From positions 3,016-67,015 of the forward strand of contig JAUPLE010000150.1 in NCBI GenBank assembly GCA_030837085.1: 64,000 bases of DNA, in the 5' to 3' direction. How positions within the stretch are numbered: position 1 is the first letter of the stretch; each line of letters begins with the position of its first letter. Below are positions 4,191 to 64,000 of this stretch, piece after piece. The notes below the pieces were generated by a model. It ran no database searches. It was not told the origin of the DNA and saw only the letters and a list, made by a program, of their open reading frames with translations. The translations under genes were made by a program, and so were the position numbers. Origin of the DNA: Acidobacteriota bacterium (GTDB lineage Bacteria; Acidobacteriota; Aminicenantia; UBA2199).

Positions 4191-4196
4191 GTAAAT

Positions 4197-4265: not shown

Positions 4266-4336
4266 ATTCTTCTTTGAAATCCTCCATCCCAGGAATTTTG
4301 AAACTTTCTAACGGCTCCAATTCACGATCCTAATGA

Positions 4337-7300: not shown

Positions 7301-8415
7301 TTGTAAAAAAGCCTTGAATGTTTTTTCACGGGAAGGATAATTTCTAAGGGCCAGGGTGTTGACAAACATACCGATTATACCTTCTAAATCGGCATGCCTC
7401 CGACCGGCTGTCGGAGTTCCTATAATAATATCATCCTGACCGCTGAGCTTGGTCATCAAAATATATAAAAGGGAAAGCAGCATTGTATATAGTGTGACGC
7501 CATTTTCAACAGCCATATTCATTAACGCCTGCGACTTTTCGGCGGGAATCTTGAAAAAGCGCCTACTACCCTCAAGGCTCTGAATATGGGGCCTGGGAAA
7601 ATCTGTAGGCAGTTCAAGCACCGGTATCTCCCCGGCTAGTTCCTTTAACCAATAGCCTTCCTGTTTCTTCCTTGCTTCTCTTTGCTCCTCACTGTTCTGC
7701 CATTCGGCGTAATCCTTATACTGGATTCTTAGCTTGGGTAACCCGTGATTATAACCTTGAGCATAACTATACATATAGGTAAATTCCCTTACCAGTATAT
7801 TGATAGAAGTGCCGTCGCAAATGATGTGATGCATATCTATCCCCAATATTAGTTCTCCGATCCCCGTTTCTATAATCCCGACTCTCAGCAGCGGCGTCTG
7901 CGACAGATCAAAAGGCCGGACGAAATCATCGACTTTATTATAGTATTCGATCTTAAAATCTACCTCCCGGTGGATTTTTTGGACCGGTTTATCTGCTGCA
8001 ATATAAAAAGATGTTCTTAAGGATTCATGCCTTTCGATCAATCGTTTAAAAGTGCTCTCTAATCTATTCACATCGATTCCCGTATCTGCTTCCTTATTGA
8101 GGTTTTTACCTAGTTTTTTAAATTCGGTAATATTGTAAACCGTACTGTTTAAATTCATTTGCTGGAGAAAATACATTCTCATCTGGGCTGAGGATAATTC
8201 ATAATAGTCCTTTTCAATTGCGGGGGGGATGGAGACATATTTTTGTTTTTGGACGTTCTTTTGGAAAAATTCGATAATTCCCTGTTTTTTTTCTTTTAAT
8301 TCACTTATTAGAGAGGGGGTTAGTTTTCCTTCGGGGGCCTGTACCTTTAATTTATCATCTACCACATCGATTTGAATATGCAACTCGTCCAGTTTTGTTA
8401 AAAATTGGGATATAC

Positions 8416-8419: not shown

Positions 8420-17454
<9,035 letters not shown>

Positions 17455-17487: not shown

Positions 17488-18429
17488 TTAAAATTCCCAG
17501 GCTCCATCATCCTCAAGTATACTTTTTGTCGGGAATTTTCTTTTCACACGTATATTTTCGTCGATATATTTTCCAATGTCTTTAAACTCAACCAAAGGCG
17601 GGACTGCATTTTTATGGAGTTTCATCCAACGCTCATCCGCTTTGACAATATCCTGCAATGAATACGGATTGGGGAGATTTAGTTTCTTAATATGTTCGGT
17701 AAATCTCGCCATCCTGCGATACCTTTCTTCTCTTGTGGGTTCGCAATCCAGGTCTCTTTTTTGAAGGAGCAGCAAATGTCTTGCTTTCTCGGGAAAAACA
17801 AGATAGCTTTTTCCCACCCACTCAGCGGAACTTACCTGCCCACCCGAATAATACCAATATGGATTTGTTTCAGCCTGGTAAATGTAATTCTTTAGTTCTG
17901 TAACAATATCAAAAGAATAAACCTTTTGATGTCCCGGGAGTTCGCCCCGTAAAAGCTTTAGAAACAGTATTTCACCTTCGCCGATTATGAATTTGTCGAT
18001 ATACGGTGTCCTTTCAATAAAAAATTCCAGGACCACCGAATCGATAGCAAGTTGGTCGTCAAAAACGCCCCCACCCATTACTGTCTTGATATGGGGATAT
18101 TTCTCCCTGGTGAGGTTAAAGACAAATAAAGACGCGGGGAGCGATCCCTTGAGTACAGAGAGGCACAATAACGCCGGTTTTTCTTCAGACAATATTTGAA
18201 GGATAAACATCCCCAGCCTGAAATAAAACTTATCTAGAATAAGCACTAGTTCCCGTGCCCGGGAATCATCGATATCTAAATAGAATGCCTGATAAAATAG
18301 TATTTTTACCAACTCGAGGTACTCTCCTTCATCTCTATAATGGATATGGGCCATCATATGATTGATTAAGACATCTTTTCCGATGTTATAAAAATTGCTT
18401 CTTTTATTTTGGGGGAAATATCTCTTCAT
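17488..18429 (-). CDS. Stand-alone cobalamin (B12)-binding-domain-like protein with no radical-SAM cysteine motif. A longer form (start 18631-18633) is interrupted by an in-frame TAG at 18580-18582.
   Basis: TVMGGGVFDDQLAIDSVVLEFFIERTPYIDKFIIGEGEILFLKLL matches the class-B rSAM B12-binding segment (GG....D.VV.GEGE). No CxxxCxxC anywhere. The in-frame upstream sequence encodes the canonical start of this domain (see finding). Confidence 0.55.
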   Translation of the reverse strand: MKRYFPQNKRSNFYNIGKDVLINHMMAHIHYRDEGEYLELVKILFYQAFYLDIDDSRARELVLILDKFYFRLGMFILQILSEEKPALLCLSVLKGSLPASLFVFNLTREKYPHIKTVMGGGVFDDQLAIDSVVLEFFIERTPYIDKFIIGEGEILFLKLLRGELPGHQKVYSFDIVTELKNYIYQAETNPYWYYSGGQVSSAEWVGKSYLVFPEKARHLLLLQKRDLDCEPTREERYRRMARFTEHIKKLNLPNPYSLQDIVKADERWMKLHKNAVPPLVEFKDIGKYIDENIRVKRKFPTKSILEDDGAWEF

Positions 18430-18644
18430 GGTCTCAAAATATTCATCATATATTTCTTTGAACTCCTTTTCAACCTTTAAATCGAAGGTTTTGACATTAT
18501 AGCCATGCTGAGCTAAGTAACTTTTGATGCAAGTTATTCCCAGGGTAGGGTTCAGTGGGATACAAAAAGGAAGTAATCCCTATAATATTTTCCCTTCCCA
18601 AATAACGTTATAGTTAGAATTTTTCTTTTTCATTTTTGCTTACA

Positions 18645-18650
18645 CTCCTT
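18645..18650 (-). promoter_or_regulatory. Shine-Dalgarno AAGGAG serving the upstream ATG (18631-18633) of the B12-binding gene
   Basis: Revcomp of 18631-18660 is aacttaaaatAAGGAGtgtaagcaaaaATG, placed 10 nt after the stop of the preceding NRPS gene. Confidence 0.5.
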
Positions 18651-18659
18651 ATTTTAAGT

Positions 18660-21600
18660 TTAGAATTCAAAGGCAATATAATCTTCCAGGGCAAAACCAT
18701 CTTTGCTGGCAAACAGGGAATGAGAAATTTTGATATCTTTCAACTTGATGTCTCTATTCCCTATTACATTCGTCATAATCTGCTTGAAATAGGTGATAAT
18801 CTTTTCTATGGTCTCTTTTTTAAATAAACTTGTGCCATATTCCATTGAAAGAGTGATGTTTTTACCTATATTTGTCCCGGTCAGGGCCAGGTCGAACCTG
18901 GTTATTTTGACTTCATGGGGATAAAAACTCATTTCTAAATCAGGTGTCTTACCATCCGGTTCACCTTCCAATTGAAGTTCCATATCATTGAAAATATAAA
19001 AGAAATCAAAGAGGGGATTCCTTCGAGCATCCCTTTTAGTGATGACCTTCCGTACCAGTTCTTCAAACTGGAAGTCCTGGTTGTCAAATGCTTCCAATGC
19101 CTTCTTTTTTACTTCACTTAGAAACTCCCTAAATGTTTTATCCCCGGCCGGTTCATTGACCAACACCAGCATATTCTGAAATGTTCCAATTATTTGTTCC
19201 AGGTCAGGATGTGTCCGACCTGACGCCCCGGTGCCGATAATGATGGTTTCCTGGGCGCAGATCCTGGATAACCATATGTTACATATTGCCAGGATAACCA
19301 TAAAAAGGGTGGCCCCTTCTTCCTGTGCTATTTTTTTTAACTGGCTCGTTTCTTCAACTCCTAATGCAAAATTGATAAGACTTCCCGCAAAGCTCTGTAT
19401 CTCGGGTCTCTCAAAATCAATGGGTAGGTTCAACTCCGGTATCCCCCTGTTCAAAACCTCTATCCAGTACTCCTCCTGTTTTTTTATCGCATCGCTTCCT
19501 TTTTTACTGTTCTGCCATTCTGAAAAATCCTTATACTGGATAGGTAATACGGGTAGTTCTTTGTCCACATCTCTAACCAGATGCCAGAACTCTTTCAGCA
19601 AAACTCCCTGTGATAATCCGTCGGCAACGATGTGATGCATATCTACCATTAGTATATATTCGTCAACATCCATTTCAATTAACCCTACTCGCAACAAGGG
19701 GGCTTGAGAAAGGTCAAAGGGCCTTAGAAAATGGCCAAAAATTGTCTCTGGGGAATGCCTTTGGGGACGTTCCGAATGATATTCAATTGCAAATTCCACC
19801 TCTCGGTGTATTCTTTGGCAAGGTTCACCTTCTACCAGTAAAAATGAGGTTCTAAAACTTTCATGCCGTTCGATCAGTTTGTTGAAGATATCCTCAAATT
19901 TTTTCTTATCCGGTTTCATTTTAAGTACGGCCATATTCGGCAGGTTGAAACCTGTATTCTCTAAATCTAATTGCTGGAGTACATAAAATCTCTTTTGTGC
20001 TGAAGATAATGGATAATATTCCTTTGCTTCCACCGGCTCGATCGATGCAAATTTATGTTCCTTTGATGCTCTCATGAACTGCACTTGTTCCGCCAGTTCC
20101 CTTATATAGGGAGTTTTAAATAAATCCACCAAAGTTAATTTTACATCCAGTGTTTTATATATTTTCGAGACCAAGATCATTGCGTTTAAAGAGTTCCCAC
20201 CGAGTTGAAAGAAGTTGGAATCTATACCGATCATATCTTTTTCTATTCCCAAAACTTCAGTCCATATCTCTACAAAACTTTCTTCCACCTTATTTCGAGG
20301 TCCAATATATGCTCCCTCTACCGTTTCGATTTGAGGCTCGGGAAGTGCTTTCCTGTCTATCTTCCCATTGGGAGTTACGGGAATGGCATCCAATGGAACA
20401 AAATAGGCTGGGATCATGTAATCCGGTAGTGTTTGTGACAGGTATTCTCTTAATTCTCTATGCTCGGGCATTCCACGGTTATTTTTCTCTAAAACGATAT
20501 AGGCACACAGGTATTTATCGCCGTGACCATTCACCTTACATACCACCACCGCATCTTTGATATTCTTATTGATAATTAACCGGCGCTCTATTTCTTCCAA
20601 TTCAATCCGGTTTCCCCTTATTTTAACCTGGTAGTCAAATCTTCCCAGGCATTCAATAGAACCATCCTCCCTAAAATAACCGATATCACCCGTTTGATAT
20701 AATACGGCAAAATCGGGGTCCTTAATTTTATCAAGAAAGGGATTGGGAATAAAAGAAGCCTGTGTCTTTTCAACATTCTGCCAATATCCTTTTCCAATAC
20801 CCACGCCTGCCACACATATCTCTCCTCTTATTCCCACTGGGCATAAAGCTAAATGCCGGTCCAGGATATAAATATGTAAATTCTGGAGCGGGTTACCTAT
20901 AGGAATAGTACTTTGGGTTTCAGAAAAAAGCACGGGAACCCTGTAGTGGGTAACATCATCCGATGCTTCTGTGGGGCCATAGGCATTTAAAAGGGGTATA
21001 CAGTGAAAATGACGGTACCATTCTCTTACCAGGGAAGGAGTTAGGGGTTCTCCGGTGGGTATCATCCACCTTAAATGCTTAAGTTCCCCTGCATTTTCCT
21101 GCACCACCGTTTCAAGGAAAGCGGTCATTAAGGAGGGTACTGATTCTAAAATGCTAACTCTACCTTTGCGAAGCACCTGAAAAAAATTCCAGGGTTCCAA
21201 AACGGTTTCTTTATCAACGATAAAAGTAGTTGCCCCCAGCAATAAACCGGTAAGAAATTGCCAGACGGATATATCGAAGCAGGAGGAGGCGGTTTGGGCA
21301 ATGGTATCCCCTGATGTCACGGACAGGTCGTTAATCTTGGCATAAAGATGATTGATCATTCCTAACTGGTGAATTAAAACTCCTTTGGGTTTACCCGTGG
21401 TGCCCGAAGTGTAGATCATATAGACAAATTGATCCGCCACACCGATCAATCCAGGGTTCTCCAGCAACTTGCCATGTTCATTGGTACTAAAGGATTTCTC
21501 ATAATCGAGGTAAAAGACCTGGTTCACCTGGATGGAAGAAGATGCCTCTTGAAGCCGGTTCAAATTTTCATGATTGTCCTCACTAGTTATCACTACTTTT

Positions 21601-24600: not shown

Positions 24601-25961
24601 TGATGGATCATGACTCCCTTTGGCAATCCGGTAGTCCCGGAGGTGTAAATTATATAGGCGAGATTATCCGATGAAATAGGGAGCCGGGAATTTTCCGTCG
24701 AATATCCATTAAGGGTATGGCTCAATTGGGTGTCGCCATCCAGGTACAGCACCGTCAGCAAACCCGGAAGACGATCTTTTACTTGATTAACCGTTTCAAT
24801 ATTTTCCGTTTGCGTTATCAATACTTTTGCTTCGCAATCTTCAAGGATGTTTTTAATCCTTTCCCCCGGGTAATCGATATCGAGTCCCAGGTAAGCTCCC
24901 CCGGCTTTAAATGTCCCGAAAATGGATGCCAGCATTTTTATGCATCTTTTCATATATATTGCCACAAATGCATCGGCCGCTATTCCGTTACTACTTAAAA
25001 ACCGGGCAATACGGTTGGCCTCCCCGTTTAACTTCTTGTAGGTAATTTGATTGTTACCATTGAATATGGCGGCAATTCGATCCCCACACCGGTGGACCTG
25101 TTCCTCGAACAACTGGTGATAACATATATCTCGCCTGATATCCTTTTGGGTATTATTGAATTCAAAGAGTATCCGTTTCTTTTCCTCTAGTGAGAGGATC
25201 GTCACTGTCGATATGGTCGAATCAACACTAAAAAGGATTTGCTGCAAAAGAGTTTTCAAATGGATAATAAGTCTTTGAAACCTGGCTTGCTCGTACCGCT
25301 GCGAATTGTATTGAATGGAGCCTATAACGTTATCATCTGTTCTGAAAAATGAAAATACTGTGTTGGTCTGAATATTCCGGGTATATCTTTTATCCTGGAT
25401 ATTTTCCATTATAAGCATCACATCAAATAATGGGAAATCAATACCCGTCTCATCATAGGTTAAATCCAGTTGCTCAATCAATACTTCCATGGGGTAATTC
25501 TGATTTTCAATGGCTTCGGTAATAACCTGCAGCACCTGCAGCAACAGCTCTTTAAACGTCATCCCAGGAGCAATTTGACTTCGTAAGGGAAGAACGGTAT
25601 TGATAAATTCAATATCCACATCCTGTTTATAAATGGGGGAACCTAAAATGATATCGGAGTGTCCGGTATATTTATGGAGCAAAATAACCAATGCCGCCAC
25701 CAGGATCATATGCAACCTGGAATCAGCGCCTTTACTTAATTGCATTAACCGGCTAAATAGCTCACCCTCCAGGCAAAAATCCACACGCGCATCAGCTGCG
25801 GCGTATCCATTTTCGGAGGCATCGCTCTTTACGATAAATCGATCGTAATGAAAGTAACTTTTCACCCATTCTCCAGATAGTTTTTGTAACCAATAATCTC
25901 TCTCTTTGAGTTTTTGATTGGCTGCAATCATCAACCGGTCATTTATTTTTCGTTTCAGCAT
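18660..25961 (-). CDS. Bimodular NRPS: Clobe - A - T - C - A - T - C (2433 aa), ending in a full C domain plus tail ...DYIAFEF
   Basis: N-terminal Clobe (DYWLQKLSGEW, FINTVLPLRS, NQNYPME, FPLFDV). Two paralogous A domains (AYIIYTSGTTGLPKG / VYMIYTSGTTGKPKG; FDISVWQF; AYGP(A/T)EASDD; YKTGDIGYF / YQTGDIGYF). T motifs LGGHSLKA and LGGNSLNA. C domains with MHHIITDGVSQ and MHHIVADGLSQ. Confidence 0.9.
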   Translation of the reverse strand: MLKRKINDRLMIAANQKLKERDYWLQKLSGEWVKSYFHYDRFIVKSDASENGYAAADARVDFCLEGELFSRLMQLSKGADSRLHMILVAALVILLHKYTGHSDIILGSPIYKQDVDIEFINTVLPLRSQIAPGMTFKELLLQVLQVITEAIENQNYPMEVLIEQLDLTYDETGIDFPLFDVMLIMENIQDKRYTRNIQTNTVFSFFRTDDNVIGSIQYNSQRYEQARFQRLIIHLKTLLQQILFSVDSTISTVTILSLEEKKRILFEFNNTQKDIRRDICYHQLFEEQVHRCGDRIAAIFNGNNQITYKKLNGEANRIARFLSSNGIAADAFVAIYMKRCIKMLASIFGTFKAGGAYLGLDIDYPGERIKNILEDCEAKVLITQTENIETVNQVKDRLPGLLTVLYLDGDTQLSHTLNGYSTENSRLPISSDNLAYIIYTSGTTGLPKGVMIHHLGMLNHIYANIAFLGITEEDIIAQTASLSFDISVWQFLTAGILGGAVYIVDRQEVGEPSRLIYSLQKGRVTILEAVPALMAAFLEVIKQEGHKELKYLRWMIPTGEALPVALARQWYRHCPGIKLVNAYGPAEASDDVTLWVIEAADLEDQGTIPIGKPLQNLHIYIMDTNLSLCPTKVPGEICIAGIGVGKGYLKNPTKTAKSFVPNPYAPEIGGHDYEIIYKTGDIGYFREDGNLEFLGRKDYQVKVRGFRIELEEIEHQLLSLDAVKEAVAVAKEDENGEKYLCAYVVFHPSAQLALPNLREHLALNLPYYMIPSYFMILEKIPLTPNGKIDRKALPDPEIKKGDGYIAPRNEIEEKLADIWAEVLDIDKSVIGINSNFFELGGHSLKAILLISKIHKALNIKLPLAEIFDAQTIRELAQIIQKETPVNYISIEPVEKKEYYVLSSSQKRLYVLQQLDLEGTSYNMPILFNLGEGMNEKKMEEICSKLISRHESLRTSFELIHEKPVQKIHPNINIGIEYHEAGGNAKKTVTEIFRDFIRPFDLTLAPLLRLGLIKSEGLQNIAMLDMHHIITDGVSQEVLIREISALYNGEDLSPLKLHYKDYSEWQQSRAVIEALKKKEEYWLKEFQGEIPVLDIPTDFPRPVVQSFEGAMVYFNLDETETIALGKIAAKADTTIFMVLLSLFNITLSNICNQQDIIVGVDVAGRNHADLENIIGMFVNTLALRNFPAAEKVYTGFLQELKERTLQAFENHDYQFEELVEKVAVARDTSRNPIFDVMFSFTDKDTGTGAIGGTTESPLSERLNSTKSMYSYEKKTTKFDLTLTGMKTPKFLFFSFEYCTKLFRKETIKRFVNCFKQVVNSVIRDRDRRIAEIEIITEEEKEKILYIFNNTKKEVVRDKGFPALFEEQVDRAPHKIAAIHNQRHITYSRLNEEANHIAHLLLSKGIRDTFVALYLKRSIAMLASIIGVFKTNGAYIPIEVDYPPDRVIYILENSGSKVVITSEDNHENLNRLQEASSSIQVNQVFYLDYEKSFSTNEHGKLLENPGLIGVADQFVYMIYTSGTTGKPKGVLIHQLGMINHLYAKINDLSVTSGDTIAQTASSCFDISVWQFLTGLLLGATTFIVDKETVLEPWNFFQVLRKGRVSILESVPSLMTAFLETVVQENAGELKHLRWMIPTGEPLTPSLVREWYRHFHCIPLLNAYGPTEASDDVTHYRVPVLFSETQSTIPIGNPLQNLHIYILDRHLALCPVGIRGEICVAGVGIGKGYWQNVEKTQASFIPNPFLDKIKDPDFAVLYQTGDIGYFREDGSIECLGRFDYQVKIRGNRIELEEIERRLIINKNIKDAVVVCKVNGHGDKYLCAYIVLEKNNRGMPEHRELREYLSQTLPDYMIPAYFVPLDAIPVTPNGKIDRKALPEPQIETVEGAYIGPRNKVEESFVEIWTEVLGIEKDMIGIDSNFFQLGGNSLNAMILVSKIYKTLDVKLTLVDLFKTPYIRELAEQVQFMRASKEHKFASIEPVEAKEYYPLSSAQKRFYVLQQLDLENTGFNLPNMAVLKMKPDKKKFEDIFNKLIERHESFRTSFLLVEGEPCQRIHREVEFAIEYHSERPQRHSPETIFGHFLRPFDLSQAPLLRVGLIEMDVDEYILMVDMHHIVADGLSQGVLLKEFWHLVRDVDKELPVLPIQYKDFSEWQNSKKGSDAIKKQEEYWIEVLNRGIPELNLPIDFERPEIQSFAGSLINFALGVEETSQLKKIAQEEGATLFMVILAICNIWLSRICAQETIIIGTGASGRTHPDLEQIIGTFQNMLVLVNEPAGDKTFREFLSEVKKKALEAFDNQDFQFEELVRKVITKRDARRNPLFDFFYIFNDMELQLEGEPDGKTPDLEMSFYPHEVKITRFDLALTGTNIGKNITLSMEYGTSLFKKETIEKIITYFKQIMTNVIGNRDIKLKDIKISHSLFASKDGFALEDYIAFEF

Positions 25962-25994
25962 CGGTTATTTTGCTCCCTTTCTTTTTTAATTTTT

Positions 25995-27374: not shown

Positions 27375-27414
27375 AATATCCTCCTATTTATAAATTATTT
27401 TCTATTCTTTGCTA

Positions 27415-36429: not shown

Positions 36430-36477
36430 TGCTTGTTCCTTTAATGGCGGGATTCAACTTTCATAATACGATACAGA

Positions 36478-42162: not shown

Positions 42163-42231
42163 TTTTCAATGGCTACCCTCTACAAGGTTGTTGGGGAATA
42201 CTTACCCAACGCTGAAAACGGCTGCTTTATA

Positions 42232-47943: not shown

Positions 47944-47965
47944 GGTACGATCTCCTTTTTCTTTT

Positions 47966-53900: not shown

Positions 53901-55630
53901 TTATTTCGGGCATATTCTTTTATGATTGTCCCCATTTCGATTACCCGTGCGATGTAGAGAAACCACTTCATACTAATGGCAACAATTTCCGGCTGAACCT
54001 GCTGCAAAAGTGTCTCAATATTTTTTTTCATGGAAGCATAGTCCGTACTATTATCATAGAACTGGCAGCGTGTTTTGATCCCCTTCCGCATTAAATAAGA
54101 ACCCAGGTATAATAAACCAGTAGAAGGAGTCCCCGATGTATCTCCCAGAAGTAACACTTGGGCTTTAGTTATTTCTTCATCTTTAAATTTCCGCCAAAAC
54201 CAGTCTATACTTAATTCTGTGACCACTTCCTTTTCAAAACTACCGCTGTGCGACTTCGACGATCGGGCTTCCATTCCATCGTCATTAACTCCCACCAGAT
54301 CGATCAAATGGTTCCGGTAAAGAGTTTGAACCAATGGAACCAAATCTTCAAATTCATCCACAGTATAAATCTCCGGCCGGTTATTGAATTGAAAGAAAAC
54401 TTCCAAGAGGTCGGTCTTGTTCATAGTATATATGAGAAATGCAGCTTCATTATCTTCCATGGTTTTAATTTGTTTATAAATGGTTTTTAAATTTCTCCTG
54501 CCGTCAAAAAGTACAATTAACTCAGCCATATTCTTATTGACAATCACACTGTTGTGCCAATTTGTTTTTAACAATTTCCAACCACTTTTAGAGAAAGGCT
54601 GCTCCAGATCAGCATGATAAATAAAAAGATTCTTATTAAAACAACAGGTTTCCATTTGTTTATTCACCCCGACGTCTGTGCCTATGGATTCCAACAAGTT
54701 ATATATATCACTCAGATCAATAGGAGAAAACACAGCGGTTTTATCCGGAGTTTTTTCCACCTGCTCTTCAAACCATTGATGGATGGTCTTTCCAGAAGGG
54801 TATCCTGTCTCAGTATTATTAAAATCCAGTAGAATCTGCTTTTTCTCTTGCGGAGTTAGCATGCCCAGGTGAGAAAGCGGTAAATCTACATTAAAAATGG
54901 CCTCCCGAAGCAGTTGGTTAAAATGGCCGACCAGCTTTTCTAGGGTGGTTTTCTTATACAATGCCGTGTTATATTCCAAAATTCCTATGATATAGGGAAT
55001 ACTCCCATCTGCTTCTTCTATCCGGAAAATAAATGTCAGACTGCACGGAGTATGTCGGAGATATTTTTTATTATGGATATTTTCAAGTAGAACCGCCACA
55101 TCAAAAAGTGGCGATCCCTCTTCAAATGTATCTGCATCAAACTTTAGTTTTTCTGTTAACAGTTCGATCGGATAATTTTGATTATCAATAGCATCGGTGA
55201 GGGTTTGTCTTACCTGCAATATGAATTCTCTAAAAGAGACATTCTTTCCCACCCTATTTCTCAACACCAATATCGTATTTATAAAATCACCGTCCATTTC
55301 TTGTTCATAAATAGGTGTTCCGACAATAATGTCTCGATTGCCGATATACTTGTGCAGTAAAAGGATGACGCCAGCAATAAACAGCAAGTTCAAGGTGAAA
55401 TTTGAACCTTTACTCAACACCATTAATTTAGCTGCAATTTCCTCATCAAATTTAAAAATGGTGGAATCAAACTCAGCGGCTTCATCAATATAGGTACTTG
55501 TTTTTTTGTAGTCATAGGGGAAATGGGCTTTTACCAATTCTCCAGCCAATTGCTTTAGCCAAAAATCCTTTTCCTTTAAATTTTGTTCTGCGGCTATTCT
55601 CAACAATTTTGGATAATTCTTATGGATCAT
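47966..55630 (-). CDS. NRPS module Clobe - unknown 200-aa region - [B12 then rSAM] - A[ThiF/E1-like domain plus degenerate A fragment at a8-a9] - T - C (2554 aa), tail ...EVNFNF
   Basis: Clobe (DFWLKQLAGE, FINTILVLRN, NQNYPIE, SPLFDV). A core A1 LTYRQLHEKANQLS, A3 AYVIYTSGTTGKPKG, A5 NHYGPTEAT, A7 YRTGDLACW, A8 GRIDKQVKIRGYRIELGEIE, A9/A10 LPDYMIP..PNGKVD. T FFELGGHSLNA. C MHHIISDGTSF. Confidence 0.85.
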   Translation of the reverse strand: MIHKNYPKLLRIAAEQNLKEKDFWLKQLAGELVKAHFPYDYKKTSTYIDEAAEFDSTIFKFDEEIAAKLMVLSKGSNFTLNLLFIAGVILLLHKYIGNRDIIVGTPIYEQEMDGDFINTILVLRNRVGKNVSFREFILQVRQTLTDAIDNQNYPIELLTEKLKFDADTFEEGSPLFDVAVLLENIHNKKYLRHTPCSLTFIFRIEEADGSIPYIIGILEYNTALYKKTTLEKLVGHFNQLLREAIFNVDLPLSHLGMLTPQEKKQILLDFNNTETGYPSGKTIHQWFEEQVEKTPDKTAVFSPIDLSDIYNLLESIGTDVGVNKQMETCCFNKNLFIYHADLEQPFSKSGWKLLKTNWHNSVIVNKNMAELIVLFDGRRNLKTIYKQIKTMEDNEAAFLIYTMNKTDLLEVFFQFNNRPEIYTVDEFEDLVPLVQTLYRNHLIDLVGVNDDGMEARSSKSHSGSFEKEVVTELSIDWFWRKFKDEEITKAQVLLLGDTSGTPSTGLLYLGSYLMRKGIKTRCQFYDNSTDYASMKKNIETLLQQVQPEIVAISMKWFLYIARVIEMGTIIKEYARNNSLEIKIVVGGNTASYYPEKIMMYDCFDILVRGDGEDPLLRICRGEDIGSIPNCVYKNDGRIIVNPIGYVQDETVSREVYLSHLDEILLSHYTSRLGTFFIVTHKGCEMNCLYCGGCNRVHQKAFNRKKVFKRGVEEVRKDIMEAKPYTSTFMFEFDILDKRLVEYCRQIWEGIDLSGHFCIFSTLTPPSAQLIKLVSQTFKYVYWDFDICTPSETHRKLLFSMGLVKPQPTDEDIMQFMDRCDEYPNIEVRLNLITGLPCFTQEDIEPSKQLLSKIINNHSCFGELHWARLHAQPGAPILEDAGKYQMYAYASNFEEFLTYSQKSFNNNSNYLTTEELNYPYIYFKDDRMNSMITSFYLEMNKKVDQYKKDIRRGLIVNQVLTYRQLHEKANQLSMELKLKGVTPNQVVGIMLERSVDIPVGILGIMKAGCAFMPIDPEFPSGRIEYMLKDSNAKTLVATPETIAKLKAGIEKVSFGIIDISNLSSLSISTFGLTALADNDAYVIYTSGTTGKPKGTILSHRSVVNYVHWFTKTTSLTPCDKAILTSSFAFDLGYTTLFPSILNGGQLHILSREMYLLPDGLLDYILQKEITYLKVTPSLFSAIINAPGFSLLKCRTLRLAVIGGEPINVKDLEKAHALCPHLHIMNHYGPTEATIGCISTFVDFENFEKYQQQPVIGKPIYNANIYVLGKDLNLLPISVPGELCISGTCLARGYLNQPELTIDKFVFPSLHSTITSSLHYPAYRTGDLACWLSNGTIAFLGRIDKQVKIRGYRIELGEIENRLRKHPIVDDALVIVKAAAMLGVKPGDEQGEKYICAYIVSKANEGISPPRVDRKEKMENQKKVITFRELGIKKHYIEQAGMNRKKIAVKSNKRSLTFETLDQYANRLACLILEKYDDRYKLSKQERIRYIRQMLLAGWGQASQEKLKSTTVFVAGAGGGASPTVTQLALAGFGTIKICDFDTVELSNLNRQFLHNDERLGMNKAISAQITVGKTNPHVKVVPCTQKLTRENVFELVGDSAIIFDMFDGPADKFILSECAIVKQIPHLIISMTDINAYAAVLHSPHTPCYHCLFDKAKLETIVNAMKHYVANYSKNPLPVVSTSLFISTGVVVNEALKILLGFEEPAYNKFFYFNQRGAATDLAFTPGYKAMTHLFSDHFIRLCKEQGFDWEIGWRGNFLEELKIEPDPDCPVCGSRGMEMRKALEEQREKAHSVTYIQEEKREEEKLETIALLVNQDTHLAIGAVGAMKSGKVYVHLDTSSSLEELTNILEDSESRIIVTNDDWVDTAEKLRNRVNMNIAIINITHIEEMEKEDDTPNMIEIPTEIRPDRPAYMIYSPGSSGNLERKDISMKQFYEALFNGVEYTFEVNNRMPDTGSLSKELREYLREELPDYMIPMYFISLERLPLTPNGKVDIKALPEPGLETRKELVAPRNDVEETLMKIWSALLGKEKNTFGIDSNFFELGGHSLNATIMAARVNKELNMKLPVGEVFKTPTIRELSRYLMGSEEEIYTSIQPVEKKEYYPLSSAQMRMFLLSQIKTTTSDNIPGVYQVDGPLDYECLESTINRMIERHELLRTSFEMVDHHPVQRVHESVGLKITQIDANSEIHAISNQQIKDIINAFVQPFDLGKAPLQRVGLLKLAEENHLLIYDMHHIISDGTSFQLYIREFISLFAGMELPSIRIQYKDFSIWQNNLRESGVLKKQEEYWLNVFSGDIPTLNLSTDYPRQKVQSFEGDTIIFVLDKNLIADIYEIASKVGATLYMALLAIYNILLYKYTGQEDIVVGSSSAGRPHVDLEHVIGFFVNTLAMRNHPYGEITFLDFLKEVKTNALKAYENQDYQFDELVNLLGIQRDAGRQVLFDTHFTLHNIYVENSNVPKEGPGLGNLVFSLYPIEVKTTQFDIIIHANEISEVVHFTLRYCTKLFKRETIERFAKHYEEISRIVTENKNIKLKDIKVSHRLETAQVNMPEVNFNF
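49853..50179 (-). other. Degenerate duplicate of an A-domain a2-a3 segment, following the ThiF-like domain
   Basis: LAIGAVGAMKSGKVYVHLD resembles A2 LAILKAGGAYVPLD. PAYMIYSPGSSGNLERKD resembles A3 LAYxIYTSGSTGxPKG but has lost the P-loop Thr/Gly and Lys residues. Confidence 0.5.
50306..51118 (-). other. ThiF/MoeB (E1-like adenylyltransferase) domain embedded between A8 and A9 of the A domain
   Basis: VFVAGAGGGASPTVTQLALAGFGTIKICDFDTVELSNLNRQ is the E1 nucleotide-binding signature. Downstream zinc-knuckle CYHC...CPVCGS. DNA checked at 51061-51120. Confidence 0.8.
52931..54163 (-). other. B12-binding domain followed by a radical-SAM core (canonical class-B order), located before core motif A1 of the A domain
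   Basis: B12 motifs AQVLLLGDTSGTPSTGLLYLGSYL, IKIVVGGNTASYYPEKI, DILVRGDGEDPLLRI. rSAM motif THKGCEMNCLYCGGC (CxxxCxxC), followed by about 200 aa of rSAM-like barrel sequence. Confidence 0.75.
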
Positions 55631-55644
55631 AAAACACTCCTTTC

Positions 55645-58600
55645 TTAAAATTCCAATTCCATTTTCGGCTGATCAACTGTGGCACTTAAAAAATGGTGCG
55701 AAATGGTGATATCTTTTATTTTGATATCTTTATTATCTATTACGCTGGCTATAATTTGTTTGAAGTAAGCTATGAACTTCTCTATGGTTTCTTGTTTAAA
55801 CAATTTCGAACAGTATTCGACTGTGAATCTCACCTTTCCCTGAATATCCTCGCAAAAAAAGGCCATATCAAACTTTGAGGCCTGGTTATCATACTTATAC
55901 GGTCTAAATTTCAATCCAGATGGCCCGGTTCCAGAAATATCATCTACCGCTCTTGTCTCATTCTTTTGGTTCTGTAGAATAAGGGCGACATCGAACAATG
56001 GATTTCTGCCCATTTTTCTGGATACTAATATTTTTTCTACCAGCTCTTCAAATTGGTAATCCTGGTTTTCAAATGCCAACAAAGCTTTTTCTCTGACTTC
56101 CGCTAAAAATACTTTGAATGTCTTTTCTTTGCAGGGATAATTCCTTATTGCCAGTGTATTTACAAACATACCGATGAGAGGTTCAATATCCGGGAATCTC
56201 CTCCCTGCAATCCCCGTACCAATAATGATATCTTCCTGGCCACTGAGTTTGGCCAGTAATACACTATAAAACGCAATCAATACCATAAACAGGGTGACAT
56301 CTTCTTCCCGGGCTAATTCTTTAATATCTGTGGTTTCCTTTTCGGTTATTTCAGACTTTACCCAACCACCCTCAAAACTCTGATAAGGCGGTCTTTCATA
56401 ATCGAATGGCATATTCAATTCTGGAATACCTCCGCTAAACTCTTTTAACCAATAATCCTCCTGGTGCTTTAGCGCCAACTTGACTTCAGGATTGCTCTGC
56501 CATTCCGAATAATCTTTGAATTGAAGTTTTAAGGATGTCAATTCTTTGCCAACCATGAGAATCATGAACTCCCTTACAAATATTCCCATTGAAATACCGT
56601 CCGATATTATATGATGTGTATCTACAATTAAAAAATGTTCTGTCTCAGCTATTTTTATCACTCCCACTCTTAATAAAGGCGCTTTTGATAAATCAAAAGC
56701 TCTAACAAAAGTTTTTATCATTTTATCGATTTTTTCGTTTACTAAGATCGAGGCCCCGGGTGATATATCGTTTTTTGAAAGGTCATAATAGTCTATCTCA
56801 AAATCCACAGATTTGTGTACCTTCTGCACGGGTGTATCATTTACCATTACAAATGATGTTCTCAAACTCTCATGTCTTTCGATCAGCTTCCTAAAAATTT
56901 TCCCCAGTCTATCTTTATCGCACTCCCCCTCCAGTATCACCATATTGGGCATGTTATAACCGAAGCTGTCTGGTTGAATTTCCTGCATGAGGTAAATTCT
57001 TTTTTGCGCAGAAGATAAGGAATAATATTCTTTTTCCTCAGTAAGCTCTATCTCCATAAGTACAAGCGGTATTTCATTATCTAATTTCCCTGAAATATAA
57101 TTAGCTAAACCTTTTATTGTAGGTGTGTTAAAAAACTCAGGAATTGGTACCCGGGTTCCTATCTCTTTCTGAATTCTTGCAACAACAGCTATAATTTTCA
57201 GAGAGTCCCCCCCCAATTCGAAAAAATCATCATCAATACCCACAGGTTTAATACCAAAAAACCTCTGCCAGATATTAACCAATTCTTGCTGAGTTTTATT
57301 TTCTGGGGGAGTATAGGAAGTAGAAATTTTAGGTCTCTCATAAAACGTATCGAAATGATCATCATCAAGTGAATCAACAATGCCCGATTCTAATTTTATG
57401 TTATAATTATCTACATATTTAACTACTTCTCCTAAATCGCGTGATGAAATAATTACATGAGCCAAATCATTCTCAAGTATACGGTCAAAAACCTGGATAC
57501 CTTGCGAAGGTGATATGGCCAAAATATTATCACTAAGGTCGGTGGAGAGATTTGCTGCTTTCGCAGCTTTGATTGCCATGCCCACTTCACTCCAATCACA
57601 CCAATCGATAGTTACTGTATAGGTACCTTGTTTCTGTTTATAATAAGCAAATACTCCCAGGAATTCATGGCCTGCGTTATATCCAACCTGACCGAATTTT
57701 ATTTTATATAGGAGATTGCCGATGGATGAAAAAAGGACCATAAAATCCAATTTATTATTTGCCAGGAGTTCATTTATTACTAGAGTACCTCTCACTTTTG
57801 CAGCCAAGAGTTCTTCTGTCATCTCGCGTGTCCGACGATGAATAACACCTGCATAATCGATAAGTCCTGCTGCATGGATAACTCCGTTTATTTTCCCGAA
57901 ACGTTCCTCTGATTTCCCGATAGCTTCTTTCATTCGTTCATAATTTGATACATCGACATGATGAATATATATCTCCGCTCCGAGGTTTTCCATTTCTCTT
58001 ATTTTTCGTATCTGCTGGCAAAAGGTTTCCCCCTCTTTGTCATCGCGCGTCAAACAATCATCCCATTGATCGCGTGGTGGGAAATCCAAAATATCGATTA
58101 ATATTAACCTGCTCTTATGTCTTCGCGCCATATGTTCAGCGATAGTAAATCCCATGCCTCCTAATCCACCGGTAATCAAGTAAACACCATTTTCCTTGAA
58201 ACGACAACTATTTTGGGAGTTGCCATTCAGTCGGATGGGTTCGTAGCTTTCTTTCCAGCGATAACTGCCGCGATAAGCCACCACTAAATGCTCAGAAAAG
58301 TTCGTAGAAAACTCCCGGAGAATTTGAGTTACGAGTAAATCCATTTTATCAACATCCAGACCAGGATCAATAATATCGATACTCCGACAGCAAACATTAC
58401 TATATTCTAGGGGAATTACCTTGACAGGTCCAAGAATGGTCGCTTTTTCAGGGCATAATGCTTCCTCTCCTGTTGCGGACTGCATACTACTGGTAATAAC
58501 TCCTAGTTGAATTTCATGATAAATACTATTTTTTCCGATGGCCTGGGCGATATTAAGCAGGCTATAAAGTCCTAAATCTTGCACTTGATCGATTATTCCT

Positions 58601-60759: not shown

Positions 60760-60762
60760 TTT

Positions 60763-63477
60763 TTATCCTTTCCCAGCTTCCAGTCGCTTCTGAAGTCGCT
60801 GCCGCCGGTCCATTTTGCCTCTTTCAAGGGCTGCCGATCGATCGCGATGGTCTGCCATTGATACCTCTTTTTTAGCGTTGGGATTTAAATACTCCGCTAA
60901 CGAATGCACGGTGGTATACCGGAACATGCTGACTATCGGTATTTCCAACTGGAATACTTCTCTTAACTTGCCATTTATCCTGATAATATCGAAAGAGGTT
61001 CCACCCACCTCGAAATAGTTGTCGTGGATGCCGACTTTATCCCGGTTTAAAACTTCCTGCCATATCCCGGCGATCTTTTTCTCTATTTCATTTTGTGGGG
61101 CCACATAAGTGGCGCTGGGATCTATTCGTTTGGCCAATAACTCCAGGGCCTTGCGGTCCACTTTCCCATTGAGAGTCAGGGGTATTTTTTCTACTTGCAT
61201 AAAATGCGCCGGAATCATATAGTCGGGCAGTACACCGGCCAGGTATTCCCTCAATTGGGGAATATTAAATTCTTTTTCCGTCGCAATATATGCAAATAGG
61301 GACGGAACAGCGCCAGCGCTTTCCTTAAATAATACTACGGCCCCTTTTATGTCTTCATGCTTCAATAGTTGAGTTTCGATTTCTCCCAATTCGATGCGGA
61401 AACCCCTTATCTTTACCTGGTGATCGATGCGGCCTAAAAATTCGATGTTACCGTCGGGCAACCACCGGGCCAGGTCGCCGGTACGATAAAACTTTGAATG
61501 ATGAGTGATGAATGATGAATGATGAAGATCGATAAATTTTTCCGCGGTTAATTCCGGGCGGTTCAAATATCCCCTGGCTAACCCTACTCCTGAGATGCAC
61601 AGCTCCCCTTTTACTCCAATGGGTTGGAAACGCTGGTTTTGATCTACTATGTGTAAATTGATATTATCGATAGGTCTACCGATTGGTATCTCATTGATGT
61701 TTTCTCCAGCCAAACAATTAAAGAAAGAGACATCTACGGTGGCTTCCGTAGGGCCGTATAAATTTACCAAATTGACGCCGAATTTGGCGGTCAACAATTG
61801 TCGGAACATTGCAACCTGACGCCCCCCTAATGCTTCCCCACTGGAAAATACCTGTCTTAAATTGGAAAGCCCGGTCAGGTTGACGGAATATTCACAATAT
61901 TCCAGAAAAACCTGCAACATGGAGGGGACAAAGTGTATTGTACTGATCTTGTTTCTTGCGATGGTTTTTATTATCGCTTCCGGGCTTTTTTCTTCATCGA
62001 CGCCCAGAAGGCAAAGCGAAGCGCCCTGGAAGGACCACCAGAATAATTCCCATACAGACACATCGAAAACTGCAGGTGTTTTTTGCAAGATCACATCCCC
62101 TGGGTTGATTGGGTAATATTTTTGCATCCAATGGAGCCGATTCACCACTGAGTGATGTTCGATCATTACACCTTTTGGATTCCCTGTGGATCCAGATGTG
62201 TAAATGACATAGGCGATATTTGAAGAATTGGAAGCGTGGCAGCATGGAAGCGTGGAAGGGTGGAAATTAGAAGGTTCTAAAGAATCTATAAAAATAATTT
62301 CAACATCCTTCTTCTCTTTTGCTATTCCACTCTTCCAATCTTCCGCCCTTCTTATCATTATCTTTGCTGCACTGTCCTTCAACATGTAATTGATGCGTGC
62401 TTCCGGGTATTGCGGGTTGATGGGCAAATATGCGCCCCCGGATTTTAAGATACCGAAAATTCCGATAATCATCTCCAGGGACCGTACCACCATAATACCC
62501 ACTATGATATTGGGTTTCACTCCTTTTTCTCTTAATAGGCCGGCCAATTTACCGGAGCTTTCGTTCAATTCCCGATAAGAAAGATACGTCTTCTCTTCTT
62601 CTCTTCTTCTCTTCTTCGCATCTCCTTCTGCTCCTACAACCGCGATATGGTCCGGCGATCTCTCAGCCTGCGCCTCGAACAATTGATGTATGGTTTTATC
62701 CCTTGGATATTCCGCTGCCGTATCGTTAAATTCATATAATAATTGCTGTTTTTCTTCAACGGTCAAGACATCCAACAGATACACCTTCTGTCCCGGGTTC
62801 TCTACCATGCCATCCAGCAAGTGGAGCACATTCCTGCTGAATCGTTCAGCCGTTTCCCCGGCATGGGGGGATGAAGGATATTTTACTGTTATAACCATTT
62901 GTGTATTAGACTCAGATAGGACAAACACCAGGTCGAAACGGTCAAGATACCGGTTTTCCACTTGCAGCGAATCATAAGTTAGAGCAATCTTGAAGATGTT
63001 TATAGATCTGTTATTATTTATTTCCTGTAATTCCGCTAAAATACAATCTAAAGAGAATTCCGAATAATTAACCGCCTCGATCACTTCCTGTTTAGTTTGA
63101 TCAATCAACTCTTTAACGGTCAAAGGAGAGGAAATCCGGTTCCTGCAAAATAGTATATTCCTATCCTTCCCGTCATTTCCGCCTGCTACAGGGGGCATTA
63201 TACCCACGATCAAATCTTCAATACCTGTATATTTGTTCAGAACGATATTCAAGGCGCTGAGAAACAAAATAAACAAACCGATATCGGAATTTTTAGCTAT
63301 TTTTTTCAATTTAACTATTAACTCCTCCGGGATGTTTAATTGAAAGGAAAGGGCCTGAGATTTCGCTGTGGTTTCTTTTATTATATCATGTATTGATGGC
63401 AACGATATTACCGGCAATTCTCCCGACAGTTTTTTCAGCCAGTATTCGTCGATAACTGTCTTTTTTATCTGCTCCAT
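60763..63477 (-). CDS. NRPS module Clobe - A - T (904 aa) with a basic C-terminal tail, feeding the downstream KS
   Basis: Clobe (DEYWLKKLSGE, NYSEFSLD). A motifs LSYRELNESSGKLA, AYVIYTSGSTGNPKG, FDVSVWELF, NLYGPTEAT, YRTGDLARW, GRIDHQVKIRGFRIELGEIE, LPDYMIP, LNGKVDRKAL. T YFEVGGTSF. Tail ...RRQRLQKRLEAGKG. Confidence 0.85.
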   Translation of the reverse strand: MEQIKKTVIDEYWLKKLSGELPVISLPSIHDIIKETTAKSQALSFQLNIPEELIVKLKKIAKNSDIGLFILFLSALNIVLNKYTGIEDLIVGIMPPVAGGNDGKDRNILFCRNRISSPLTVKELIDQTKQEVIEAVNYSEFSLDCILAELQEINNNRSINIFKIALTYDSLQVENRYLDRFDLVFVLSESNTQMVITVKYPSSPHAGETAERFSRNVLHLLDGMVENPGQKVYLLDVLTVEEKQQLLYEFNDTAAEYPRDKTIHQLFEAQAERSPDHIAVVGAEGDAKKRRREEEKTYLSYRELNESSGKLAGLLREKGVKPNIIVGIMVVRSLEMIIGIFGILKSGGAYLPINPQYPEARINYMLKDSAAKIMIRRAEDWKSGIAKEKKDVEIIFIDSLEPSNFHPSTLPCCHASNSSNIAYVIYTSGSTGNPKGVMIEHHSVVNRLHWMQKYYPINPGDVILQKTPAVFDVSVWELFWWSFQGASLCLLGVDEEKSPEAIIKTIARNKISTIHFVPSMLQVFLEYCEYSVNLTGLSNLRQVFSSGEALGGRQVAMFRQLLTAKFGVNLVNLYGPTEATVDVSFFNCLAGENINEIPIGRPIDNINLHIVDQNQRFQPIGVKGELCISGVGLARGYLNRPELTAEKFIDLHHSSFITHHSKFYRTGDLARWLPDGNIEFLGRIDHQVKIRGFRIELGEIETQLLKHEDIKGAVVLFKESAGAVPSLFAYIATEKEFNIPQLREYLAGVLPDYMIPAHFMQVEKIPLTLNGKVDRKALELLAKRIDPSATYVAPQNEIEKKIAGIWQEVLNRDKVGIHDNYFEVGGTSFDIIRINGKLREVFQLEIPIVSMFRYTTVHSLAEYLNPNAKKEVSMADHRDRSAALERGKMDRRQRLQKRLEAGKG
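61496..61523. repeat. Tandem heptamer gaatgat gagtgat gaatgat gaatgat in an A domain; encodes HHSSFITHHS before YRTGDL
   Basis: Read directly. Confidence 0.8.
62591..62614. repeat. Perfect 3x tandem octamer (ttctcttc)3 in the A-domain N-terminal coding region; encodes KKRRREEEK
   Basis: Read directly. Nearby at 62221-62270 there are tggaagcgtgg-type imperfect repeats. Confidence 0.8.
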
Positions 63478-63505
63478 ATATATTTTTCTCCGGGGCTATC
63501 ACATT

Positions 63506-64000
63506 TTAAAAATCAAACTCAATCTCTTTTACCTTACCAAGTTCTTTTTCGACGGGAATCGTATAATCCAGGTACTGGAGTTTAGCTTGCCGGTTGTTCA
63601 ATATATTTTCGACCAGGATTAAAAAACGTTCCTTCATCAACTCGATGGTCTCACGTTTGAACAATTTTGAACAATACTGGAAAGTACAGGAAATGCCGTT
63701 CTCTCTTTCCGATGCTTCTAAAGTTAAATCAAACTTGGATGTTTTCATTTCTAGCCCGTATGGCGCCGCCTTTACTTCCATTACAACTACACCTTTATCG
63801 CCCATCGACGTTATGGTCTGCAGTACAAAGGCGACATCGAACAGGGGATTTCGGCTGCGATTGTTTCTTAAGTTCAGCTTATTTACCAATAAACTGAAAG
63901 GATAGTCCTGGTTATCAAATGCTTCCAGGGTATTTTGTTTCACTTCCCGTAACAAGTCTTCAAAAGTTTTATGGGCCGCCGGCCGGTTTCTTAAAGCCAG
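63506..64000 (-). CDS. 3'-terminal part (end of a C domain) of an upstream NRPS gene that continues beyond the window; tail ...KEIEFDF
   Basis: AFDNQDYPFSLL (C6-like), RNPLFDVAFVLQ (C7-like), FQYCSKLFKRETIE. The reading frame is open to position 64000. Confidence 0.8.
   Translation of the reverse strand: MALRNRPAAHKTFEDLLREVKQNTLEAFDNQDYPFSLLVNKLNLRNNRSRNPLFDVAFVLQTITSMGDKGVVVMEVKAAPYGLEMKTSKFDLTLEASERENGISCTFQYCSKLFKRETIELMKERFLILVENILNNRQAKLQYLDYTIPVEKELGKVKEIEFDF

Follow-up and report, generated by a model that had tools for sequence, protein, structure and literature searches.

Modules split between condensation and adenylation domains: a candidate two-part junction device in nonribosomal peptide synthetases

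The window analysed here, 64,000 nucleotides (nt) from an Acidobacteriota bacterium (GenBank assembly GCA_030837085.1, contig JAUPLE010000150.1, positions 3,016 to 67,015), carries a peptide-antibiotic gene cluster of nonribosomal peptide synthetase (NRPS) and polyketide synthase (PKS) type. All 13 of its large open reading frames (ORFs) lie on the minus strand, and their proteins are named here by start coordinate (p63477 and so on). At the recurring subunit junction the upstream protein closes with a complete condensation (C) domain and a short tail ending in an aromatic motif, and the downstream protein opens with an N-terminal half C domain, hereafter the psi-lobe, placed ahead of its adenylation (A) domain. 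The pairing of tail and psi-lobe is real, holds in both directions and extends across several phyla. It looks like a new, conserved and widespread two-part junction device for modules split between C and A, which also appears to recruit radical S-adenosylmethionine (radical-SAM) enzymes. A module boundary between C and A had been proposed in an earlier sequence-only reading of this DNA, and our domain maps, drawn from Pfam and hidden Markov models (HMMs), agree with it, as does alignment; taken as a whole, that reading is partly supported and needs the corrections given below.

Six minus-strand ORFs, with starts at 63477, 55630, 47943, 42162, 25961 and 17454, open with the C-terminal lobe of a C domain only. 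Against the Pfam Condensation family (PF00668), their N-termini match solely a stretch that opens at profile positions ~182-195 and runs to 456 (E from 6e-19 to 2e-32), so that the half-profile comparison suggested with the sequence-only reading returned the C-terminal half alone. With a local C-domain HMM, for which the window's own terminal C domains were the input, the match runs from HMM positions 179-185 onward. When aligned to ten true C domains from the same DNA, the psi-lobes begin at the YWL helix right after motif C4. Motifs C1-C3 and the catalytic HHxxxDG are absent from all six in this alignment, as had been claimed, and when a functional C domain is defined by both lobes plus HHxxxDG, the upstream terminal C domains qualify and the psi-lobes do not. 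Each psi-lobe is followed by a C-A linker (..EEKxxLLxxFNxT), which ends in FN(N/D/R)(T/G) at amino acids (aa) 250-271, and then by the A domain. The motif set GTxIYKQExDxxFINT, NQNYPxE and FPLFDV ascribed to all six is clean in four of them; the psi-lobes of p63477 and p42162 are clearly more divergent, with 28-29% identity to the p47943 copy. The six regions are as follows.

62719..63477, minus strand: psi-lobe and C-A linker of p63477, aa 1-253; profile 195-456, E 5.7e-22; FNDT at aa 250; divergent.
54812..55630, minus strand: psi-lobe and C-A linker of p55630, aa 1-273; profile 188-456, E 3.2e-31; FNNT at aa 270.
47134..47943, minus strand: psi-lobe and C-A linker of p47943, aa 1-270; profile 182-456, E 1.6e-32; FNRT at aa 267.
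41341..42162, minus strand: psi-lobe and C-A linker of p42162, aa 1-274; profile 186-456, E 5.6e-19; FNNG at aa 271; divergent.
25149..25961, minus strand: psi-lobe and C-A linker of p25961, aa 1-271; profile 188-456, E 5.4e-28; modelled with AlphaFold2.
16663..17454, minus strand: psi-lobe and C-A linker of p17454, aa 1-264; profile 191-456, E 1.6e-27; FNNT at aa 261.

On the upstream side, six ORFs close with a full C domain (profile 2 or 3 to 444-455) containing HHxxxD(G/E), followed by 10-31 aa that end in ELEF, NFNF, EFDY, GFGF, DFGF or AFEF. A seventh protein, ending in EFDF, enters the window from its edge, and its stop codon (63506-63508) lies 28 nt before the start at 63477. The sequence-only reading had counted seven complete terminal C domains with tails of 8-30 aa: six are confirmed as full, the seventh is visible as a C-lobe only, and the F/L-x-F/Y endings stand with the measured lengths given above. 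All seven tails in its list were seen, and an eighth, AWEF, on the ORF 17488-18429, had been missed, so that seven or eight tails face six psi-lobes in the window. The two proteins that end in a thiolation (T) domain, encoded at 8416-17454 and 60763-63477, have no tail, as had been stated. Between the DFGF protein p36429 and the next psi-lobe ORF, p25961, sits a tail-less aminotransferase, p27374. In p47943 a linker-like helix (LSETDREELIKKM) is kept ahead of the tail.

63509..64000, minus strand: C-domain C-lobe at the window edge, tail ...KEIEFDF; profile 297-453, E 5e-30; any further part of the domain lies outside the window.
55648..57033, minus strand: terminal C domain of p60759 (HHIISDG) with tail ...DQPKMELEF; Pfam profile 3-446.
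47969..49333, minus strand: terminal C domain of p55630 with tail ...MPEVNFNF; Pfam profile 2-454.
42235..43671, minus strand: terminal C domain of p47943 with the longest tail (~31 aa, ...TELEAEFDY); Pfam profile 2-455.
36481..37836, minus strand: terminal C domain of p42162 (HHVISDE) with tail ...ADEIGFGF; Pfam profile 2-449.
27418..28764, minus strand: terminal C domain of p36429 with tail ...NNEDFGF; Pfam profile 2-444.
18663..20024, minus strand: terminal C domain of p25961 with tail ...EDYIAFEF; Pfam profile 3-447.

HHxxxDE replaces HHxxxDG in two C domains of the window, the terminal one of p42162 (HHVISDE, 37000-37836, minus strand) and the second one of p17454 (HHIITDE, ~13400-14760, minus strand).

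The same arrangement recurs in other genomes. A scan of a genome collection with four psi-lobes as queries retrieved 25 loci at 32-49% identity, the window itself not being among them, with hosts in Candidatus Aminicenantes, Deferrimicrobium, Clostridia, Bacteroidales and Omnitrophota metagenome-assembled genomes. In 25 of 25 loci the psi-lobe stands at the start of an ORF, and its opening ..AANQN(I/L)KE(R/K)(D/N)YWLxKLSG is conserved across loci. All ORF neighbours in 26 loci and the window were tabulated, and a tail was scored wherever an ORF ended in [FLIMVWY]x[FYWL]. Of the 40 psi-lobe ORFs, ~34 come within ~120 nt after an ORF with such an ending; in the same table, C-like ends that precede a full C domain (loci L011 and L014) have no tail. 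Sampling in the reverse direction started from the terminal C-lobe and tail of p60759, of whose 120 nearest database relatives 78 carry the tail. Counted from the C-terminus, 61 of these 78 have D or E at position -4, 65 have F at -3 and 71 have F at -1, with G, E or D predominating at -2. Where the genomic context of such tail-selected relatives was inspected, a psi-lobe ORF came next, 56-359 nt downstream, in seven of seven cases, which include Bacillus thuringiensis and two Paenibacillus genomes from cultured organisms. In Paenibacillus larvae, a protein of PKS..T-C type ending in 'RIEFDF*' is followed by a truncated psi-lobe ORF. The database survey proposed with the sequence-only reading thus found the C|psi-lobe-A layout in more than 30 independent assemblies, finished-quality cultured genomes included, and the observation is real and statistically solid.

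This recurrence also disposes of the suspicion, raised alongside the first description of the junctions, that they are frameshifts or assembly errors inside ordinary C-A genes. We found no points in support of such an artefact. Every upstream protein already has a complete C-lobe, which leaves two lobes per module in any frame, and the intergenic gaps at the junctions are 14-69 nt long, several with a purine-rich (GGAG-type) stretch ahead of the start codon. Given the duplicated lobes and the layout's presence in so many assemblies, we regard this explanation as refuted and its residual chance as negligible.

The psi-lobes are mostly an old and separate lineage. A profile of the six was searched against 1.8 billion proteins; among the 150 top-scoring representatives, ~40 open with a psi-lobe scoring 220-320 bits, compared with 100-160 bits for their internal canonical C-lobes. 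A neighbour-joining tree of 208 lobes placed 74 of 90 N-terminal lobes in one clade that contains no canonical lobe. On average psi-lobes share 42% identity with one another and canonical lobes 34%, and the two groups share 26%. This clade has kept intact frames and ~42% identity over at least five phyla; the p63477 and p42162 psi-lobes fall outside it. The lobes had been described as duplicated C-domain C-terminal lobes. A recent duplication of the neighbouring C-lobe was rejected: the local C HMM gives more than 500 bits for true C domains and 46-96 for the psi-lobes, which belong mostly to the separate, more conserved clade, and the DNA-level repeats in the window, 60-80% identical, are ordinary module paralogy.

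Relative to canonical lobes, the psi-lobes lack ~20-26 residues between motif C7 and the KFDL strand and ~6 before C5, and the canonical C model has in the C7-KFDL region an extra strand (E375-378), which the psi-lobe model does not have. We infer that the residues missing after C7 correspond to the latch crossover segment, an assignment drawn from the fold topology and from a secondary-structure comparison of these two models, and not from coordinates. By the published description of the C-domain fold, it is in this region that the latch crosses to the N-lobe (PMC11546977, PMC10510592). The idea that a psi-lobe borrows an N-lobe in trans and so completes a C domain was rejected, the upstream C domain being complete already and the putative latch region of the psi-lobe lost.

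An AlphaFold2 model of p25961 aa 1-800, built on a 37-row alignment, had a predicted local distance difference test score (pLDDT) of 81 and a predicted template modelling score (pTM) of 0.72, with most of the psi-lobe above pLDDT 90. Foldseek aligned it with solved C-A didomains (Txo1/2, LgrA, McyB, EntF and PvdL) over 715-840 columns at query template modelling scores (TMq) of 0.67-0.74, compared with 0.48 for A-only structures. In this model the psi-lobe occupies the canonical C-lobe site on the A core, which fits the earlier proposal that a lobe retained on the A side keeps the C-A platform. The psi-lobes also match TIGR03443, the Lys2-type alpha-aminoadipate reductase family, at positions 23-222 (E 1e-10 to 1e-12). 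Together with the Pfam and local HMM results, the Foldseek comparison bears out the description of the N-terminal ~250 aa as a C-lobe homologue without the catalytic lobe.

The tail behaves differently in modelling. AlphaFold2 on the terminal C domain of p60759, with an 84-row alignment, gave pLDDT 89 and pTM 0.88 and was confident to ~aa 440 of 462, with the last ~15 residues in coil at pLDDT ~50; the tail is therefore predicted to be disordered and not packed on its own C domain. The tail segment measures ~22-27 aa compared with ~16 aa for the cis linker, and is acidic and rich in Pro and Gly. Its descent from the C-A linker is plausible from the alignment. Tail ends align with the W/F of the linker motif, and downstream linkers read ..F-x-F-N-x-T. 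The corresponding W]-[NATE point of the C-A linker is the cut used for exchange units (XUs) and for zipper-split type S NRPSs (PMC8362031). In p47943 the tail lies ~25 aa beyond the linker-like helix. With a tether longer than the cis linker and the p47943 tail past the linker helix, linker descent or a homologous cut position is plausible and unproven.

These alignments give some room to a deflationary explanation, in which a gene split, or recombined unequally, within the C-A linker and left a functionless scar, a dead half-domain facing a Phi-x-F stub, and generic contacts among C, A and T domains pair the subunits. The tails indeed align with the Phi-x-F-N of the linker and stop exactly ahead of N-x-T, and the cut apparently coincides with the W]-[NATE point of the exchange units designed in the Bode laboratory (PMC8362031). 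Against a scar speak the length, acidity, Pro/Gly richness and predicted disorder of the tail, the preservation of the psi clade with intact frames in at least five phyla, the tail-less junctions of epimerization (E)|C type in the same loci, and the same tail on radical-SAM enzymes, which have no C-A linker. We consider a scar improbable.

That the tail acts as a recruitment signal, and is more than the stump of a linker, is argued most strongly by the radical-SAM enzymes: a non-NRPS protein has the motif exactly when its gene stands ahead of a psi-lobe ORF. In eight loci (L002, L005, L010, L011, L012, L013, L019 and L023) a protein of ~565 aa is encoded between the C-tail ORF and the psi-lobe ORF. 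According to Pfam and NCBIfam these proteins consist of B12-binding and Radical_SAM domains, and they end in ..NAVPxLVEF..(20-30 aa)..[DG][FW]xF. The window holds a remnant of such an enzyme.

17488..18429, minus strand: p18429, remnant of a free-standing B12-binding radical-SAM enzyme, tail ...DDGAWEF, directly upstream of p17454.

In BLASTP comparisons with the ~565-aa homologues of the eight loci, only their aa ~60-243 and ~420-572 match p18429. In this decayed gene (17488-18660, minus strand) the radical-SAM core has been deleted and an in-frame stop lies in the upstream extension, with an open frame of 313 aa and the AWEF tail kept; the protein could be a pseudogene or a surviving adaptor. 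BLASTP of p18429 against the radical-SAM inserts present in A domains of the window gave no match, and its full-length homologues match these inserts weakly. The earlier suggestion that the tail is a candidate docking motif is strengthened by its occurrence on these enzymes, by the two-way pairing and by the predicted disorder.

Tails that stand back to back ahead of one psi-lobe ORF look alike, as in GFGF/DFGF (36481-36540 and 27418-27477) and AFEF/AWEF (18663-18722 and 17491-17550). Across loci, the x residue agrees in 5 of 11 consecutive-tail pairs by hand count, compared with ~1.7 expected, and W is found at -3 in 4 of 11 radical-SAM tails compared with 1 of 78 C-type tails. The resemblance possibly reflects a specificity code, or two chains that converge on p25961.

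We propose that the subunits are natural units of A-T-C type, whose polypeptides break in the C-A linker, where a break between T and C would be usual. The C domain kept by the upstream protein at every break is complete and catalytically competent, and it would condense, in trans, the chain bound to its own T domain with the aminoacyl-S-T of the next protein. The psi-lobe, having lost the catalytic N-lobe and the putative latch segment, could not catalyse condensation; it would sit in the canonical C-lobe site, probably since the A domain depends on this platform, in resemblance to the 'ADA' extension of a fungal reductase. The ~20-aa disordered acidic tether ending in [D/E]-F-x-F-COOH would serve as a short linear docking motif for the downstream psi-lobe/A platform, and by binding there it would keep the upstream C domain close enough for the T domain of the next protein. 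An acceptor carrier protein contacts the N-lobe of the C domain (PMC10510592), so the downstream T domain must reach the upstream protein, and ~20 residues of tether fixed to the platform would leave room for this. Free-standing B12-radical-SAM tailoring enzymes of related clusters may be recruited by the same tail to the same module; in the window such enzymes are mostly fused into A domains, and the one free copy has decayed. Within this scheme the psi-lobe is probably the socket for the tail. To the full model, comprising A-T-C-type subunits, the psi-lobe as platform and socket, and the [DE]FxF tail as tether, we give an even chance. A more general proposition is somewhat doubtful: that the psi-lobe is a portable socket for the [D/E]-F/W-x-F-COOH tails of both upstream C domains and free radical-SAM enzymes, that x and the flanking residues set partner choice, and that the pairs form a hitherto unrecognised class of NRPS docking pairs spanning phyla.

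Several observations weigh against the docking model. The GFGF protein (36478-42162) is followed by p36429, which starts with a fatty acyl-AMP ligase (FAAL) domain and has no psi-lobe, and at locus L006 the partner after the tail begins at a bare C-A linker, 'SEEEKNRILFEFNRT', again with no psi-lobe; the earlier statement that each partner begins with a psi-lobe thus fails at these two junctions. They indicate that the psi-lobe is not strictly required, and the tail could instead be received by the A domain or by the linker. In loci L001 and L015 the FGF is internal, with 16-18 residues beyond it. In Paenibacillus sp. RC73 a single protein (P0053, WP_404591406) has C-psi-lobe-A in one chain three times, as modules of full C, degenerate C-lobe and A-T at aa 934-1650, 2253-2968 and 3572-4289. 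There the psi-lobe has a role independent of docking; the psi-lobes of P0053 come from another lineage than the main psi clade. In 40 pairs, tail positions -2 to -5 were tested for covariation with psi-lobe columns, and the best permutation p value, 0.0014, does not hold up over 636 tests. MAFFT puts the tail ends on the Phi-x-F(-N) of the cis linker ..LLYEF|NNT, so the tail may in part be a truncation remnant. The placements by AlphaFold2, finally, are predictions, with a bias from the C-A structures on which it was trained.

Much of this would be expected if the psi-lobe only supported the A domain, as in the 'ADA' extension, and the tail docked elsewhere (A core or A sub-domain, T domain, linker), or the C domain docked by its own surfaces. 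The modelled position of the psi-lobe at the canonical platform site, its match to the Lys2 N-terminal extension, the existence of C-psi-lobe-A in a single chain, the tails without a downstream psi-lobe at L006 and at the 36478/36429 junction and the undetected covariation all favour such a supporting role. Yet the psi-lobe consistently marks the ORFs that follow tails (7/7; ~34/40), and it is more conserved than canonical C-lobes and carries the psi-specific motif AANQN(I/L)KE(R/K)(D/N)YWL, neither of which scaffolding obviously needs. We judge support alone unlikely, though less so than a scar.

Locus L006 deserves a separate description. At 4973-9924 it encodes a 498-aa C-only protein, helical in an N-terminal stretch and ending in the tail IQFGF, followed by the A-T-C protein that starts at the bare linker SEEEKNRILFEFNRT; the latter closes with ITFGF and itself lies ahead of a psi-lobe ORF.

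The order of the assembly line in the window, with domain calls from Pfam and local HMMs, is given below (psi stands for psi-lobe, KS for ketosynthase, AT for acyltransferase, KR for ketoreductase, ACP for acyl carrier protein and TE for thioesterase).

63509..64000 (visible part), minus strand: partial ORF at the window edge, ending in C.
60763-63477, minus strand: p63477, psi-A-T.
55645-60759, minus strand: p60759, KS-KR-ACP-C.
47966-55630, minus strand: p55630, psi-A-T-C, with B12-binding and ThiF-family inserts within the A domain.
42232-47943, minus strand: p47943, psi-A-T-C, with a radical-SAM/B12 insert within the A domain.
36478-42162, minus strand: p42162, psi-A-T-C, with a radical-SAM/B12 insert within the A domain.
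27415-36429, minus strand: p36429, FAAL..KS-AT-KR-ACP-sulfotransferase-C.
25995-27374, minus strand: p27374, free-standing class-III aminotransferase, tail-less.
18660-25961, minus strand: p25961, psi-A-T-C-A-T-C.
17488-18429, minus strand: p18429, 313 aa, decayed B12-radical-SAM gene.
8416-17454, minus strand: p17454, psi-A-T-C-A-T-C-A-T.
4337-8419, minus strand: p8419, TubC_N-C-A-T-TE.
8261..8413, minus strand: TubC_N (beta-hairpin) docking domain of p8419, PF18563, E 4.9e-13, aa 3-53.

The window contains one classical T|C docking junction, between the T end of p17454 (...KMEEITI) and the TubC_N domain of p8419, and the TubC-type docking assigned to this junction by the sequence-only reading is borne out by the PF18563 match.

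The A domains of p47943 and p42162 carry inserts of ~540-560 aa with Radical_SAM and B12-binding domains at A position ~126 (45175-46785 and 39304-40992, minus strand), a site which we estimate to fall between motifs A2 and A3. In p25961 and p17454 a low-confidence or unaligned stretch of 40-57 aa is found at the same ~126 site. The A domain of p55630 is broken earlier, at position ~36-44, by an insert of ~650 aa (52757-54709, minus strand) in which Pfam finds B12-binding only, and between its A core and A C-terminal sub-domain lies a ThiF-family domain (PF00899, E 6e-47; 50489-51169, minus strand). A metagenome relative, locus L032, shows the Radical_SAM/B12 arrangement. In the literature searched, a limited library, we met no account of A domains with radical-SAM enzymes built into them.

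In the PKS protein p36429 a sulfotransferase (ST; 29008-29640, minus strand) lies directly between ACP and the terminal C domain (ACP-ST-C), and a relative, L030, has T-ST-C; olefin-forming PKS termini have the order ACP-ST-TE. In p60759 Pfam identified KS, KS-AT linker families, KR and ACP and no acyltransferase domain, which p36429 does have, and p60759 may be an AT-less module served in trans. The FAAL-initiated p36429 stands mid-operon, after p42162 with its C domain and tail and before the free aminotransferase p27374, and locus L019 repeats the order C-tail, aminotransferase, psi-lobe. One reading of this gene order is that the upstream peptide may be joined to a beta-amino acyl-ACP made by p27374.

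No description of a C|psi-lobe-A junction or of an FxF tail was found in the limited literature searched. The fungal 'ADA' extension of Lys2 resembles the psi-lobe in being a C-lobe homologue of ~200 aa ahead of an A domain, as the TIGR03443 match indicates. In a 2015 ChemBioChem article Kalb et al. reportedly found this extension to be needed for A-domain activity, and we know of no docking role for it. Lys2 differs in being a stand-alone enzyme of A-T-reductase type, with no upstream partner and no tail. The X domain of glycopeptide NRPSs is likewise a degenerate, non-catalytic C-type domain, and it recruits trans-acting tailoring enzymes (PMC8949500). In contrast to the psi-lobe, which is a single N-terminal lobe ahead of A, it is full-length, is located after the last T domain and before the TE, and binds cytochrome P450s via their own surface (PMC8949500); P450s are absent from the window cluster. 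If true, our model would show by what means radical-SAM tailoring enzymes of anaerobes are brought to amino acids on carrier proteins, and it would give a function to N-terminal 'partial condensation domains' that might otherwise be set aside as fragments.

Among docking devices, the pairs of short linear motifs (SLiMs) and beta-hairpin (TubC_N-type) domains of NRPSs and PKS-NRPSs, reviewed in PMC9113145, are alike in joining a disordered C-terminal motif upstream to a folded N-terminal domain downstream and in that one motif type can recruit several partners, tailoring enzymes included. They differ from the present junction in four ways. The candidate receptor here is a half C domain of ~250 aa, whereas theirs is a ~50-aa domain of alpha-beta-beta-alpha-alpha type; the motif here follows a C domain or a radical-SAM enzyme and theirs a carrier protein; the junction here is C|A and theirs T|C; and the motif here is [DE]FxF-COOH, whereas theirs is a charged beta-strand. 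Pfam found no TubC_N at the six psi-lobe N-termini, where Condensation alone was matched; in the window TubC_N occurs in the ORF 4337-8419 alone. COM-domain pairs (E|C) have an upstream E domain with a donor helix and a full C domain downstream, with its N-terminus as the acceptor, whereas the downstream proteins here lack the whole N-lobe.

Engineered XU and type S NRPSs come close in design, with A-T-C units, a cut at what is plausibly the same position in the linker and condensation across a non-covalent C/A junction. They use synthetic coiled-coil zippers in place of natural parts, and the A side here has an extra half C domain. The authors of type S NRPSs (Bozhueyuek et al. 2021) call the joining of subunits in trans in this way new to nature (PMC8362031). 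Splitting and recombination at the C-A linker is among the most productive strategies in NRPS engineering and now leans on such zippers because no natural docking device for this cut has been described in the literature searched. A natural, widespread device for C|A junctions would give engineers native plug-and-socket parts. If the portable-socket proposition holds, psi-lobe/tail pairs would define natural A-T-C exchange units and could be transplanted, so that synthetases, those of polymyxin type among them, are split and recombined at this linker.

A natural parallel is polymyxin synthetase, in which, as in the window, the upstream protein ends in C and the downstream protein supplies the A-T of the same module; for the window this follows from the domain maps. 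PmxA ends in a C domain, and the boundary between PmxE and PmxA is split the same way. The last module of the enzyme from Paenibacillus polymyxa is split between PmxA and PmxB (PMC3708778, PMC6429003), and no docking device for this split is described in these two papers. PmxB has 1102 aa (PMC3708778), by our estimate ~200 aa more than A-T-TE needs. The Pmx proteins themselves were compared by description only, a protein search for a link to their sequences having returned three Paenibacillus fragments, and related Paenibacillus clusters do have the psi-lobe/tail junction. The junction device proposed here, if real, could explain the assembly of long-known split modules such as that of polymyxin synthetase.

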